Notes under the pieces: generated by a model
The model's input: the letters and a program-made list of their open reading frames with translations, nothing else
Database searches by the model: none
What the model was told of the DNA's origin: nothing
Made by a program: the position numbers and the translations under genes
NCBI RefSeq assembly: GCF_001677475.2
Contig: NZ_CP015229.1
DNA from: Escherichia coli
GTDB lineage: Bacteria; Pseudomonadota; Gammaproteobacteria; Enterobacterales; Enterobacteriaceae
Direction: 5' to 3' (one strand)
DNA length: 64,000 nucleotides
Shown: positions 49,920 through 63,422 of the stretch, piece after piece
How the letters are laid out: every line of letters starts with the position of its first letter
Position numbering within the stretch: position 1 is the first letter of the stretch

Positions 49920-51038
49920 TCAAATAACCAACTTAACCCATTCCTGACCTCGAGTATCGTTATAGCGATCGGTGGTTGCCTGGACTTTATGTCCTAGTAA
50001 TGTTTTTGTATCGATACCCTGTGCACGGTACAGCCGTTCTGATAGAGAGCGTTGTTCATGAAATGTTGGCGGAGTTTTTCCTGCTGGTGGAATTATCCCA
50101 GCCAGATCCCGTGCTTTGGCAAAGTAGTCGCTCAGGTTGTCTTTACTCATCGACTTCGGTTGTTTCTGGTGCCGACTATGGATTAGATATGGACTTAATA
50201 TTCTGTCTCGGCACCCATCAATAACTTCTTTTAACGTTATCCCAATGGCATCACAGCGTAGTGTAAGCGGTAACGCCAGACGCATTCCGGTTTTTCCTTG
50301 GGTGATATGCAAGTGTTCGTTCCACACATCTGAAAAACGCATGTGGCAAATGTCATCACGGCGCTGACCAGTAACAATCGCAAGAAGCATTGCGTTACGG
50401 ATAAAGTGTTTTTCAGGCGTTGCGTTGTAAATTTTTTGCCAGTCTTCCAGGGTGAGTCTGGCTCTGGTTACTTTAGGGATTGGTTTACGGGTAGCCTCCG
50501 GAGGATTCCATCCAGGAGGAACTTCCCCTGCATGCTGTGCTTCTTTATAAATATCAAGCCATAATCCGCGATTTACTCTCGCTGTGCTGACCATGTCTTT
50601 ATCCAGCCACTCATCCAGTATTAATGCAAAGTCTCTTACTTCCAGTTCTTTCAATGGGTGGTTTCCCAGACGGGAAACCAGGAATGCAGCCATTCGCGCT
50701 TTTTCTTTGTGGGTTGTAGCTGCAATATCTCCATTTTTCAGGCGCGCGTCCTGTATTTTCAGATATCGATCAACCCATGCCTTTAATCTGATACCCCGAC
50801 GTTTTGTTGCTGATGGACTTTCATCAATTTTGCGCATGAAATATTCAGCTTCTGCTGCAGCTATTCGCTGATTGGCTGTGGAAGCGATTTTTTCTGCCTT
50901 ACCTTTGTCTGTTCCGAGTCCGTGAAATTTTCCAGTCACAGGATTTTTATACTGGTAGTAAACTCTGCCAGTTCTGCGATCAAACTTTTCGTAAAGACCG
51001 GCTACGTCAGTGCTGTTTTTTCGTGGCCTCGGTGACAT
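49920..51038 (-). CDS. int: lambda-family tyrosine integrase
   Basis: 372 aa; C-terminal catalytic region HEQRSLSERLY…LLGHKVQATTDRYNDTRGQEW resembling lambda Int. Confidence 0.93.
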   Translation of the reverse strand: MSPRPRKNSTDVAGLYEKFDRRTGRVYYQYKNPVTGKFHGLGTDKGKAEKIASTANQRIAAAEAEYFMRKIDESPSATKRRGIRLKAWVDRYLKIQDARLKNGDIAATTHKEKARMAAFLVSRLGNHPLKELEVRDFALILDEWLDKDMVSTARVNRGLWLDIYKEAQHAGEVPPGWNPPEATRKPIPKVTRARLTLEDWQKIYNATPEKHFIRNAMLLAIVTGQRRDDICHMRFSDVWNEHLHITQGKTGMRLALPLTLRCDAIGITLKEVIDGCRDRILSPYLIHSRHQKQPKSMSKDNLSDYFAKARDLAGIIPPAGKTPPTFHEQRSLSERLYRAQGIDTKTLLGHKVQATTDRYNDTRGQEWVKLVI

Positions 51039-53902: not shown

Positions 53903-54094
53903 TTAAAGTCCTGCCGGTATTTCGTTATTATTAGTGTGAGTAGTTTTATCTACCGGATAACAGTTACCGGGAATTTTTTGTTCTGCTGCTGCAGCCATGC
54001 ATTCTTTCATTGAACCGTATAAGCCAGTCACCAGCTCAAGAGATTCGCCGGAAACAAGATAAACTGTCAGAACGAGTGCAAATGTTGTATTCAT
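53903..54094 (-). CDS. small membrane-anchored protein (kil-position), unknown function
   Basis: 63 aa with N-terminal hydrophobic helix; start overlaps upstream gene stop (ATGA). Confidence 0.55.
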   Translation of the reverse strand: MNTTFALVLTVYLVSGESLELVTGLYGSMKECMAAAAEQKIPGNCYPVDKTTHTNNNEIPAGL

Positions 54095-54279
54095 TGTTTA
54101 TATCCTTTTTGCAGCAGGTCCAGACGAGCCAGCATTGAAGGAATGCATACTTCATTTAACAGGTCCTGCTCGAGTTTTCTCTGCTTAATGGCGTCTTCAA
54201 TAAATGTTTTGTCTCCAGTGATAACGCCAATTTCGAAACGAAGTTCAGACGTGCTGGCATTACATGATAACTTTTCCAT
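54091..54279 (-). CDS. small hypothetical protein (kil-position)
   Basis: 62 aa from MEKLSCNASTSEL with GAGGA SD 9 nt upstream; the track's 97-aa version lacks an RBS and overlaps an inverted repeat. Confidence 0.55.
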   Translation of the reverse strand: MEKLSCNASTSELRFEIGVITGDKTFIEDAIKQRKLEQDLLNEVCIPSMLARLDLLQKGYKQ

Positions 54280-54296
54280 TATCGCGTCCTCAACAA

Positions 54297-54444
54297 TGAA
54301 TTTTGTGATGCGGTGCCTGGTGCCTCCAGGTGACGTTAACCAGTTAACAATTAACGCAGGATACAGAGAATCCACCCATAACACTGTTTTTGGTTTTTAC
54401 TGTTCCGCGTGCGCTGAGCCGCATTCACCGCATCACAAAATTCA
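54297..54444. repeat. perfect 19-bp inverted repeat pair (tgaattttgtgatgcggtg / caccgcatcacaaaattca) flanking a 110-bp palindrome-rich spacer
   Basis: Arms at 54297-54315 and 54426-54444 checked base by base; spacer contains cctggtgcctccagg and gttaaccagttaac palindromes. Confidence 0.85.
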
Positions 54445-54856
54445 CTTTTAAAAAAGGGCGGCAGAGCAGTCACGGAGTAAAACTGATACCGCCAAATGTC
54501 ACCAGAATATTGATAACAGAGGGCGTTGTAGCGGGGTTGTCACTTAAGCGTATGGTCAACCTGACAACCCGGTGTCCTCAACGGGGAAAGGCGTCCCTCC
54601 CACCCCCGCCATACTTACCGCCGCGCCATTTCGCGGGTCGCCACAACCGGAAGCGCACGGTCGAATTAAATTTAACGACACCGTGCAGTGAGACGAACTT
54701 CGCCGTGCGCTTTCGTGTTGTGTGCCTGCTTTTAACCACGTCAGGCGAGGTGGTTTCCGTCATTCCCCAACGACAGGAAATCTGTATAATCTGGGTATCC
54801 CCAACGATCCAAGGAAATCATATGACAGAGCAAAGAGCACAAGCAGGTGATGGTGT

Positions 54857-55303
54857 ATGGACCGGGATGATATTCTTGACAGAATTTTTTATGGCTATTT
54901 TCTTGAGCAACTGTTTTCTGTAGCGACTGGTCGTCTCGATAAACTTCTCTCAGTAGTGAGTATTATCCTCGGTTCATCTGTCATTGGCGGATTCATTCCG
55001 GAAATTTCTGGCGTTTTTATTGTTGTGATCGCAACCGTCCAAACGATTTATGGATTCGGACAAAAGTCAGGTAATACCATGAGAAAATCCGCAGAATATT
55101 TGCAGCTTTTTGATGATGCAGAAAAATATTCTGATTCGGAATTGAAAATTCAGTTAAAAACTCTGGAAAAAACAGATGATCATATTTGGTCATCACTTAA
55201 AGATATTGCGATCTTAAAAACACAGATCAAAATAGGCGTCTCCATCGAACAACAAGAGAAGTTGCCCACAAAATCCAAATTGATGCGATTTCTTTGTGGT
55301 TAG
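54857..55303 (+). CDS. 2-TM membrane protein on opposite strand at the Rac sieB position; candidate superinfection-exclusion / abortive-infection effector
   Basis: 148 aa, SD AGGTGA 6 nt upstream; two adjacent hydrophobic helices (LSVVSIILGSSVIGGFIP / ISGVFIVVIATVQTIYGF) then charged C-terminal tail; convergent with flanking minus-strand genes. Confidence 0.65.
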   Translation: MDRDDILDRIFYGYFLEQLFSVATGRLDKLLSVVSIILGSSVIGGFIPEISGVFIVVIATVQTIYGFGQKSGNTMRKSAEYLQLFDDAEKYSDSELKIQLKTLEKTDDHIWSSLKDIAILKTQIKIGVSIEQQEKLPTKSKLMRFLCG

Positions 55304-55392
55304 GAATATCCAGATTGTTAAAGAGCATGCCGGAGGTTTATCCGTGTCCGGCGCACGCACTTCATCTGCGGAGAACTACTTGAGCTCATTGG

Positions 55393-55608
55393 TCAGTAGT
55401 TTTCAATCACTCGCGAAACGTTTAATGCCGCGCTTTTTGCCAGAGTGGTAATATCCTGCTCCGCTGACACCAGTTCTTTAGAGAGGCGCTCTTTGTAGTC
55501 AGCGGCCTGCTTCAGGTCATTAATGGCGCGTATCTTTCCGCACATCCATTCGTAAATTTCATCCTCGGTATAGTCTGGTGCGATGATGACGGGTTCTCGT
55601 TTCTGCAT
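55393..55608 (-). CDS. hypothetical protein
   Basis: 71-aa ORF MQKREPVIIAPDYTEDEIYEWM…; hairpin gccggag…tccggc between it and the convergent 2-TM gene. Confidence 0.5.
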   Translation of the reverse strand: MQKREPVIIAPDYTEDEIYEWMCGKIRAINDLKQAADYKERLSKELVSAEQDITTLAKSAALNVSRVIENY

Positions 55609-56241: not shown

Positions 56242-56718
56242 TTAAGTTCCTGTCTTGGTGATGTTCTGGCTTTTCCGTTTTGATTCTTGATTTTTCAGAT
56301 AGTTAGCTACCTTCATTTCCATTGCGGCAATGTAGGCGCGAACGTCATGATCAACCCAACTAGGCTCCGTAGCATTTCCAGATAAGAGGAAAGCCACAAT
56401 TGCTCTTTTTTCATCAGAGGCGGCTTGATAAAGGCTGTTTATGTCTAAAAGTTCACTTTTTGTATCTGAAGTGGATGGGGTTGGTATGGGGTATTCGTTA
56501 AGCCCCCAATGCTCTGGACCAACCACATCAGAAAAGAAACGCCATAGTTCTGGAAGTTTGTCTTTACTTATCGAACCTTTCTTAATCCAGTCATGGATTG
56601 ATGGTGGTTGGACTTTGAAATGACGTGCGATTTCCGCCTTTGATTTGACGGCTCCTGATGCAATTTTTTTGTTAATGGCCTGCTCTATCGCTCGGCCTAA
56701 GTCTTTACCACTAAGCAT
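56242..56718 (-). CDS. prophage repressor, RacR-like (HTH, no S24 peptidase domain)
   Basis: 158 aa with N-terminal HTH (KAEIARHFKVQPPSIHDWIKKG); divergent from Cro-like gene; same length and position as Rac RacR. Confidence 0.75.
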   Translation of the reverse strand: MLSGKDLGRAIEQAINKKIASGAVKSKAEIARHFKVQPPSIHDWIKKGSISKDKLPELWRFFSDVVGPEHWGLNEYPIPTPSTSDTKSELLDINSLYQAASDEKRAIVAFLLSGNATEPSWVDHDVRAYIAAMEMKVANYLKNQESKRKSQNITKTGT

Positions 56719-62576: not shown

Positions 62577-62820
62577 ATTCATTCCGTATGGGAATTCCCA
62601 TATCGGGCAAAAACGGTTTGCTGTAAAGCGAGAGTTAAGTAGAATTGCTGCGGGTGCTTGAGGCTATCTGCCTCGGGCATGCCGCCGTAAGGCAGACAGA
62701 GAAAAGCCCCAGTTAACATTACGCGTCCTGCAAGACGCTTAACATTAATCTGAGGCCATATCTATGACTTGCACACGTAGGTTAGCCTCTTACGTGCCGA
62801 AAGGCAAGGAGAAGCAGGCT

Positions 62821-62976
62821 ATGAAGCAGCAAAAGGCGATGTTAATCGCCCTGATCGTCATCTGTTTAACCGTTATAGTGACGGCACTGGTAACGAGGAA
62901 AGACCTCTGCGAGGTACGAATCCGAACCGGCCAGACGGAGGTCGCTGTCTTCACAGCTTACGAACCTGAGGAGTAA
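62821..62976 (+). CDS. hok: Hok/Gef-family type I toxin (HokD/RelF-like)
   Basis: 51 aa MKQQKAMLIALIVICLTVIVTALVTRKDLCEVRIRTGQTEVAVFTAYEPEE; AAGGAG SD; in-frame upstream ATG at 62764 gives a 70-aa mok-like extension. Confidence 0.85.
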   Translation: MKQQKAMLIALIVICLTVIVTALVTRKDLCEVRIRTGQTEVAVFTAYEPEE

Positions 62977-63014
62977 GAGACCTGGCGGGGGAGAAATCCC
63001 TCGCCACCTCTGAT

Positions 63015-63422
63015 GTGTCAGGCTTCCTCAACGCACCCGCACTTAACCCGCTTCGGCGGGTTTTGTTTTTTCTGTGCATTCTGGTTTACAATTCGCACGC
63101 CAGCCTGAACAACTGGCACCTGCTGCGCCAGCAGAGACAACCGATGGCGCACGATACCAAATTACACAATTCTGATGATTCTGCCGTTTTTGCCAGCAGG
63201 CACGGGCTGCGTTCTCACGCATTCAAATATGACTGGTATCAGCACGATCCCTGCACTGAAGAACAGGCCGAATGGCTGATTCATAACTACCGCAGACGTG
63301 GGTATGAGTTTAAGAAAGCCCTCAGTCTCGATTATCGTCACTGGATAATCTACGTCAGACTCCCTTATTCCGAACGCCCGCCGCGTCCATCCCGCACATT
63401 CCAGCAACGGATCTGGAGGTAA
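63015..63422 (+). CDS. hypothetical protein (Rem-position), start uncertain
   Basis: ORF after hok; likely start at ATG 63144 (92 aa). Confidence 0.45.
   Translation: MSGFLNAPALNPLRRVLFFLCILVYNSHASLNNWHLLRQQRQPMAHDTKLHNSDDSAVFASRHGLRSHAFKYDWYQHDPCTEEQAEWLIHNYRRRGYEFKKALSLDYRHWIIYVRLPYSERPPRPSRTFQQRIWR

Follow-up and report, generated by a model that had tools for sequence, protein, structure and literature searches.

The 64,000-nt stretch of Escherichia coli contig NZ_CP015229.1 analysed here (the window) covers the left arm of a lambdoid prophage of the Rac/Qin type, in which an open reading frame (ORF) of 148 codons lies on the strand opposite to the early genes. This ORF is a real, conserved prophage cargo gene. 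The overall reading proposed, which stands at about an even balance, is that it is the effector gene of a mobile moron cassette, inserted in the spacer between ydfC and dicF and serving abortive infection or superinfection exclusion. Its parts differ in firmness. The anatomy of the locus and the SLATT-like fold of the product are held with high confidence, and the predicted role in abortive infection or exclusion falls slightly short of even. What the window itself conveys is modest: a real gene, present as a derived allele that has lost its partner and may be on the way to losing its function. The gene and its immediate features are the following.

54857-55303, plus strand: 148-aa ORF with ATG start, predicted SLATT-like two-helix inner-membrane protein (translation, hydropathy, AlphaFold2, PHROG 6315, dN/dS)
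54845-54850, plus strand: Shine-Dalgarno sequence AGGTGA, 6 nt from the start codon; in intact relatives it falls within the micro-ORF (see below), at the 3' end
54944-54997, plus strand: predicted transmembrane helix 1 (TM1), residues 30-47, LLSVVSIILGSSVIGGFI (hydropathy)
55004-55057, plus strand: predicted transmembrane helix 2 (TM2), residues 50-67, ISGVFIVVIATVQTIYGF (hydropathy)

The case for a gene is built on conservation. A profile of close relatives retrieved 199 clusters (50% identity representatives) at E<=1e-3 from Gamma- and Betaproteobacteria, each a stand-alone protein with a length of about 145-190 aa. The ratio of non-synonymous to synonymous substitution rates (dN/dS) calculated for diverged E. 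coli alleles is 0.06-0.14, indicating purifying selection. The protein matches PHROG 6315 (function unknown) with E = 6.8e-24, and the good Shine-Dalgarno sequence assigned to the ORF by the original prediction, which was made from the letters of the sequence, is in place ahead of the ATG at 54857. RefSeq labels the product merely 'hypothetical protein' and Pfam has no match to it, as might be expected of a chance reading frame antisense to the early-left operon. That explanation is already refuted by the conservation data, to which are added a confident AlphaFold2 model and the finding that the region was inserted and differs from its surroundings in base composition; the probability of a chance frame is close to nil.

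Two adjacent hydrophobic helices and a charged tail had been noticed beforehand, and hydropathy analysis agrees. Kyte-Doolittle means over 17 residues peak at 2.15 and 2.22 for TM1 and TM2, the two segments are joined by Pro-Glu, and the remaining 81 residues up to the C-terminus form a hydrophilic part containing 14 K/R and 12 D/E. Because the basic residues lie on the outer flanks of the pair (R26 and K29 on the N side; K70, R76 and K77 on the C side), an N-in/C-in hairpin is predicted, with a minimal periplasmic loop of about 2-5 residues (Pro-Glu). An AlphaFold2 model computed on the family alignment (predicted local distance difference test, pLDDT, 86; predicted template-modelling score, pTM, 0.73) has helices at residues 3-44 (long, running into TM1), 48-65 (TM2), 67-86, 93-105, 112-125 and 138-147, and in this model the part outside the transmembrane hairpin is a cytoplasmic helical bundle. 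Small or polar residues within the membrane (G39, S40 and Q62) are conserved across nine close relatives (alignment A3), and would be compatible with helix packing or with the polar lining of a pore.

The predicted fold matches that of SLATT-type effectors. A Foldseek search of AFDB50, in which the targets are predicted models and not solved structures, returned 94 models at E<1e-3 with template-modelling scores of about 0.9 over 145-155 columns; many of these are annotated as SLATT 2TM effectors, and one match is labelled a Fels-2 prophage protein. No structural counterpart of the 148-aa protein was found in the PDB. For profile comparison, the relevant models are SLATT_1-6 and DUF4231 in Pfam, and NF033632 (SLATT_4) and NF033634 (SLATT_1) in NCBIfam. 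Co-linear, sub-threshold matches to SLATT_4 and/or SLATT_1 at E<=0.1 occur in 11 of 20 diverse family members, with a twelfth (P0031) at 0.11. The best E-values are 1.2e-5, 2.7e-5 and 4.5e-5, the top one corresponding to 25.2 bits against a cut-off of 55. When the tested relatives were reversed as a control, one match only was obtained (0.035), and SieB, used as a second control, gave no SLATT match. PADLOC returned for the window protein a weak match to RTasSLATT (E = 0.013) and another to Csx1 (E = 0.008). Pfam searches of 87 relatives yielded only scattered noise, with SLATT_4 in one member at 0.067 and SLATT_fungal in one at 0.095, and a homologue search from member P0150, aimed at Pfam-annotated SLATT proteins, recovered only 4 close relatives. 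Under the definition of SLATT used here, which is taken from later papers and general knowledge, the protein has the closely spaced two-transmembrane core and the overall fold (a transmembrane hairpin with flanking N- and C-terminal helices). It has neither the profile scores nor the partner genes of a defined SLATT family, both of which were tested, and is for that reason not filed under any of them. It is probably a member of the SLATT superfamily, on a divergent branch beyond all current profiles.

In most relatives the gene is preceded by a second one. A hydrophilic, proline-rich micro-ORF of 23-52 aa ends 3-18 nt before the effector start codon in 13 of the 15 distinct lineages that make up the lineage sample, and in both of the deposited phage genomes a tiny ORF is annotated that stops 7-9 nt short of the homologue on its upstream side. 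Examples are MTEQRAQAGGGNSTHKTVWDHIPEKNIRPKPSPTPSEERGNSNNQTSR in E. coli, MLKVNYASQGDIVPNHLNPKPIRPTPPPPSTPSDGGKK in a Providencia phage, MGNPDKFKDHRPPKPTPPKEDRK in Vibrio and MEKMLDDDEMEKRKDGVPPKNPPRPKVF in locus L061. P-x-P-x-P is invariant in an alignment of 11 pairs, and the usual pattern is H-x-P...R-P-x-P-x-P followed by a charged tail. Positions of intact copies are as follows.

L004:3315-3461: intact micro-ORF
L006:3291-3449: intact micro-ORF
L002:4875-4991: intact micro-ORF
L003:4847-4993: intact micro-ORF

Among E. coli strains, GB089, RM11911 and 2013C-3033 carry an intact micro-ORF of 48-52 aa, which the annotation pipeline PGAP left unannotated in all E. coli records inspected. In its conserved core the E. 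coli alleles show 8 synonymous to 5 non-synonymous differences in frame, 3 of these 5 being located at a recombinant N-terminal boundary, compared with 3:9 and 0:12 in the other frames; the micro-ORF is therefore considered to be translated and under constraint. The micro-proteins, which are short and of low complexity, had no match in PHROGs and no tblastn match among phages. When peptide, linker and effector were modelled by AlphaFold2 as one fused chain, only the conserved core of the micro-protein (residues 19-33) exceeded a pLDDT of 50 (block mean 67; no output of contacts or predicted aligned error, PAE), a weak hint that the core docks on the effector. The ancestral cassette is bicistronic, with the effector as second cistron. 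The original prediction, describing a single gene, missed the two-gene cassette, the first cistron of which has been deleted in the window.

The trace of this loss is preserved next to the effector.

54822-54856, plus strand: micro-ORF remnant, start codon plus 9 codons (MTEQRAQAG), then the deletion junction (alignment with GB089, RM11911 and 2013C-3033)
54839-54849, plus strand: deletion scar, a single copy of the 11-nt direct repeat ACAAGCAGGTG, of which intact cassettes have two copies 118 nt apart

Alignment with intact cassettes shows the window to be without the 118 nt between the repeats: a deletion between 11-nt direct repeats has removed the partner. Read from its own ATG, the remnant passes over the effector start codon out of frame and ends at 54923 (MTEQRAQAGDGVWTGMIFLTEFFMAIFLSNCFL, then a stop). 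The same allele occurs in about 4 of the 88 matching complete genomes (three confirmed by sequence; the fourth, OkiPb01678, L055, inferred) and in 8 of 38 IMG/VR loci. Twelve copies of the deletion lineage differ by 0 synonymous and 8 non-synonymous changes and 1 nonsense change. The non-synonymous changes include V61D, which places a charged residue in TM2 (L025 and L026), and the nonsense change, Q69*, is found in the two IMG/VR copies closest to the window (L017:4001-4444 and L018:2481-2924). A further copy of this lineage outside the twelve counted, L051:4001-4443, is frameshifted. Intact cassettes, by comparison, show 40 synonymous and 24 non-synonymous changes across 15 haplotypes, with no disruption. 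The window allele has L11F and A74T, both derived, position 74 being Ala in the other aligned close relatives. The contrast is suggestive but statistically not secure, and fits either relaxed selection, if the effector is useless without peptide or coupled translation, or counter-selection, if it is harmful without the peptide, and the window allele is probably attenuated or starting to decay.

The cassette occupies a defined slot in the prophage, the surroundings of which include the following genes.

49920-51038, minus strand: integrase, near which the prophage starts
54094-54282, minus strand: dicB, cell-division inhibitor (NCBIfam NF049927, 123.6 bits, cut-off 100)
54456-54507, minus strand: DicF small RNA (sRNA), left neighbour in the leftward early operon (Rfam RF00039, 77 bits, gathering score 48)
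55393-55608, minus strand: 71-aa gene (phrog_1744) in the position of ydfC, flanking the insertion on the right and convergent with the 148-aa ORF
56242-56718, minus strand: RacR-type prophage repressor, marking the immunity region (NCBIfam NF049929, 246.8 bits, cut-off 200)

On the minus strand, the integrase is followed by an excisionase-like gene, a gene for an 823-aa exonuclease, a DUF1482-type gene, dicB and DicF. From there the order in the window is dicB(-), DicF(-), 148-aa ORF(+), 71-aa gene(-), ydfB(-), DUF1391(-) and RacR(-), and that of the Rac prophage of E. coli K-12 is kilR(-), kilS(-; an sRNA), sieB(+), ydaF/DUF1391(-), ydaG(-) and racR(-). The 'sieB position' of the original prediction is thus literally right, the slot being syntenic with that of sieB in K-12 Rac. 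Equally accurate was the description of the ORF as the lone plus-strand gene of the early-left arm, convergent with its downstream neighbour: at the RefSeq locus, which is 99.6% identical, it is the sole annotated plus-strand gene between integrase and repressor. The early operon, including DicF, must read antisense through the cassette.

The layout of a moron, also proposed earlier, is borne out by comparison with the Qin prophage of K-12, which has the same ydfC-dicF spacer without a segment of about 600 bp (approximately 54723-55328) bearing the 148-aa gene. The window therefore has extra DNA between flanks shared with a relative, on the opposite strand and with a conserved TATAAT upstream. 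Its base composition is unlike that of its neighbours, the ORF having a GC content of 37% compared with 50% for the window and 43-51% for neighbouring genes. The gene was matched in 88 of 5426 complete E. coli genomes (71 of them covering >=80%), and the flanks in 4315 of 5426.

Occupation of the same slot does not extend to kinship with SieB. Of the two families named by the original prediction as possible, the SLATT-like one is favoured by the Foldseek, sub-threshold profile and RTasSLATT matches described above, and SieB homology was rejected on three counts. BLASTP gave no alignment with K-12 SieB at E<=100, hhalign of the 87-member profile against SieB gave a probability of 0.4%, and in PHROGs the K-12 SieB control went to phrog_6399 ('SieB superinfection exclusion', E = 5e-70) whereas the window protein went to phrog_6315. 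The likeness is one of place and build. Both genes lie between a division-inhibitor/sRNA pair and a DUF1391 gene, opposite to the early-left operon, and both encode proteins of about 150-160 aa with two adjacent N-terminal transmembrane helices and a cytoplasmic C-terminal part, with a prophage-expressed role presumed for each. The location is thus of the SieB type, and the strand would make transcription independent of the early-left operon. Unlike the cassette, K-12 sieB has no proline-rich micro-ORF upstream, and there is no similarity in sequence or profile.

Several short sequence elements accompany the cassette.

54785-54790, plus strand: TATAAT (consensus), -10 element of the putative cassette promoter, 31 nt ahead of the micro-ORF start codon; the -35, TTCCCC (54763-54768), is weak
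54764-54773 and 54798-54807, plus strand: two copies of the direct repeat TCCCCAACGA bracketing the -10, both changing together by lineage
54723-54755, plus strand: left edge of the cassette, with the inverted repeat TGCCTG-N13-CAGGCG (54723-28, 54742-47), absent from K-12 Qin
54734-39 and 54750-55, plus strand: interleaved second stem AACCAC...GTGGTT, AACCTC/GAGGTT in Providencia phage PSTNGR2lys
55329-55352, no strand assigned: hairpin GCCGGA-N12-TCCGGC between the convergent genes, in the early-left backbone and outside the cassette

The spacing between TATAAT and the micro-ORF start is kept by other E. coli alleles, L007 and Providencia phage PSTNGR2lys; a generic promoter scan was silent on this putative promoter because of the weak -35. 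In L007, L008, L002 and L052 both copies of TCCCCAACGA depart from the E. coli version but are like one another, which suggests either that they share a recognition element or that a tandem duplication in the leader has been conserved. At the left edge, none of the six pairs of TGCCTG/CAGGCG varies among 6 lineages, although the loop differs in length; there is no covariation, and the interleaved repeats could be a pseudoknot-like structure or a protein-binding site. A search for RNA structure in the conserved leader of the cassette with RNAalifold found only one invariant 6-bp stem and no covariation. The hairpin thought earlier to separate the convergent genes does exist as a 6-bp stem, but does not hold up as a separator or terminator. 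It is present in K-12 Qin after ydfC, where the gene is absent, as well as upstream of the micro-ORF in a Citrobacter prophage (L009). As backbone sequence found without the gene, it is not the terminator of the 148-aa gene. It also lacks a T-run, no terminator was called, and its folding z against shuffled sequences is 0.21 on the plus strand, which makes it no more stable than they are, and -1.77 on the minus strand.

The family occurs almost exclusively in prophages, and all relatives that could be placed belong to temperate phages or prophages. Lambdoid elements, among them those of E. coli and Citrobacter, Providencia phage PSTNGR2lys and several metagenomic contigs, carry the gene on the strand opposite to the early-left genes and the repressor by which it is flanked. 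The contig of L007 stops right after the gene, and only upstream early-left genes (KilR, exonuclease VIII) are visible. Two P2-like prophages (L012:6001-6465 and L064:4001-4513) have it antisense inside the early operon, adjoining replication gene A, and phage EKP1 has it antisense between a Q-like antiterminator and the holin. On a P22-like contig, a member without micro-ORF (L056:4001-4471) is found just after a gene with an SLT domain (putative ejection protein), adjoining arc and ant in an immI-type region. This is where P22 carries sieA, and the family therefore fills both classic 'sie' slots in different phage types. Overall, 13 of the 15 lineages have the gene antisense to a lytic operon, L007 not being judgeable. 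From such an arrangement, transcription of the resident lytic operon would be expected to silence the gene, and repression of that operon in the lysogen to leave it free for expression.

A mechanism may be proposed from these features. In the lysogen, with the lytic operon around it under repression, the pair would be expressed from a sigma-70 promoter of its own. The effector would sit closed in the inner membrane, N-in/C-in, under the regulation of the micro-protein, until a cytoplasmic cue from a superinfecting phage released it; it would then oligomerise into a pore, and the depolarisation that follows would abort the infection. Upon induction of the resident prophage, convergent lytic transcription would silence the cassette. 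An intact cassette would thus be a functional analogue of SieB or RexB. RexA and RexB of lambda are likewise a prophage-expressed pair in the immunity/early-left neighbourhood; the membrane protein of such two-component modules is held to depolarise the cell once superinfection alters a cytoplasmic partner or signal. They have no homology to the present pair: RexB has four transmembrane helices and RexA is a protein of 279 aa, and the partner here is a peptide of 23-52 aa.

A number of results weigh against this reading of the cassette. Neither the window protein nor a single one of the 20 relatives compared attains the threshold of a curated SLATT model; for the window protein, NCBIfam returns no SLATT model and Pfam is empty even at E<=10. 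Among the PADLOC defence models none was significant, either for the window protein or for 10 relatives, with no E-value under 0.008. Genes for SMODS, SLOG, TIR or RT proteins are absent within 4-6 kb, both in the window and in the other lineages examined (15 lineages). The co-fold with the micro-protein is weak (pLDDT 67, without contacts or PAE), the putative promoter has a poor -35, and an intrinsic-terminator scan downstream of the ORF found no terminator for the cassette. L056 and L064 are naturally without the micro-ORF, so the effector can exist alone. Finally, the non-synonymous excess in the deletion lineage is not significant when set against the shallow polymorphism within one intact clade (3 synonymous : 7 non-synonymous), and few independent events are involved.

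Some of these points bear on rival explanations, the weightiest of which concerns the window alone. Its copy may be a non-functional remnant, in which the deletion uncoupled or occluded translation and the ORF is intact for lack of time; this is a tentative possibility, clearly short of even, and is compatible with the effector reading for the family as a whole. Occlusion could arise because ribosomes starting at the ATG at 54822 read out of frame across the effector start, and both the deletion and the out-of-frame reading are seen directly. All polymorphisms of the deletion lineage are non-synonymous or disrupting, the closest copies (L017 and L018) have Q69*, and the window has A74T where the aligned close relatives have Ala. 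Yet the window ORF is of full length, its Shine-Dalgarno sequence and start codon are intact, the partner-less allele is intact in several unrelated strains, and there are members of the family that function without a partner, or at any rate are maintained. The mutation counts, moreover, are small and partly non-independent.

The two other explanations apply to the family, and each is considered unlikely. In one, the protein would act in superinfection exclusion without a pore or killing, by blocking genome entry or by interfering with an inner-membrane receptor or transport, for which SieA, Imm, Sim and DicB are models. An inner-membrane protein predicted to be expressed from the prophage would suit this, as would the sieB slot of the window gene, the immI-type position of L056 by arc and ant (the position of sieA in P22), and the presence in the same operon of dicB, whose product blocks phage entry via ManYZ. 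With a periplasmic loop of only about 2-5 residues, however, the soluble part lies almost entirely in the cytoplasm, as does every conserved polar position, and sensing of a cytoplasmic cue therefore fits better than an entry block from outside; the fold, too, resembles predicted pore-forming effectors. The other, equally improbable, is a toxin-antitoxin-like or phage-benefit module, with a two-transmembrane toxin serving addiction, host physiology or lysis timing and the micro-protein as antidote or translational leader. The tight bicistronic spacing with a tiny upstream cistron is as in antitoxin-toxin operons, and the changes after loss of the micro-ORF, all amino-acid-changing or disrupting, are those expected of an unguarded toxin. 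The EKP1 pair adjoins a lysis cassette, and the window prophage also carries hok/sok. Nevertheless, the EKP1 pair is on the strand opposite to holin, endolysin and Rz, in a phage with a holin of its own. A polyproline-stalling leader was rejected as a conserved feature, the E. coli micro-ORFs having no PP or PPP motif. Intact partner-less alleles occur in at least four complete E. coli genomes of different sources, and since these and the natural solo members L056 and L064 persist, the effector does not appear to be acutely toxic without the peptide.

Returning to the cassette as an effector with its regulatory peptide, the comparison with known SLATT systems indicates what is new. SLATT proteins are widely predicted to form the killing pores of several kinds of defence system (CBASS-like, TIR and reverse-transcriptase, DRT10/UG17), in which they are coupled to enzymes that make nucleotides or cDNA, and the DRT10 preprint explicitly states their gating to be an open question. 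They share with the window family a size of about 150-180 aa, a two-helix transmembrane hairpin flanked by N- and C-terminal cytoplasmic helices, and mobile, phage-related contexts. In contrast to them, the family has a proline-rich micro-ORF as partner in place of SMODS, SLOG, TIR or RT, and lies antisense in prophage lytic operons, not in defence islands. The SLATT literature consulted makes no mention of such a micro-ORF partner, and neither the RefSeq accessions of the 148-aa proteins nor phrog_6315 is mentioned in any paper found. A stand-alone SLATT-like protein with a PxPxP micro-protein, antisense in prophage lytic operons, is the new element.

It is a further step, and a rather doubtful one, to regard the intact cassette as a self-contained, previously unrecognised prophage immunity system in which a PxPxP peptide (23-52 aa) gates a SLATT-type pore and antisense placement brings about self-silencing on induction. 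If true, the system would be widespread in temperate phages of Gamma- and Betaproteobacteria, and the gate would be a peptide and not a nucleotide second messenger or cDNA. The family would then be a minimal, enzyme-free version of SLATT on temperate phages, offering a simple genetic system for the study of pore opening. Partner-less alleles, including that of the window, would be natural 'knock-outs' revealing the dependency. The classic sieB slot of Rac/Qin-type prophages gains a second, unrelated type of cargo from the present finding, which also illustrates that micro-ORFs missed by annotation pipelines can be integral to defence cassettes.

Some minor features remain to be listed.

54302-54442, minus strand: weak Rfam match to STnc100 between DicF and dicB (28.7 bits, gathering score 47, E = 0.006)
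62652-62826, plus strand: sok antitoxin RNA of the hok/sok type (Rfam, 110.6 bits), farther right in the prophage
62985-63066, plus strand: adjoining weak isrK-like match (Rfam, 26.7 bits, below gathering)
4297-4633, minus strand: rne 5' untranslated region (UTR) element
6494-6662, plus strand: SraB sRNA

The last two identify the first ~50 kb of the window as host chromosome. A GC-rich stretch at 54560-54720 was considered as a possible retron or non-coding RNA and rejected: Rfam found only DicF, and the stretch is Qin/Rac backbone upstream of dicF. Within the spacer upstream of dicF, at 54593-54600, the window has an 8-nt insertion together with local divergence, reading GGCGTCCCTCCCACC where GB089 and K-12 Qin have A--------ATAACC.

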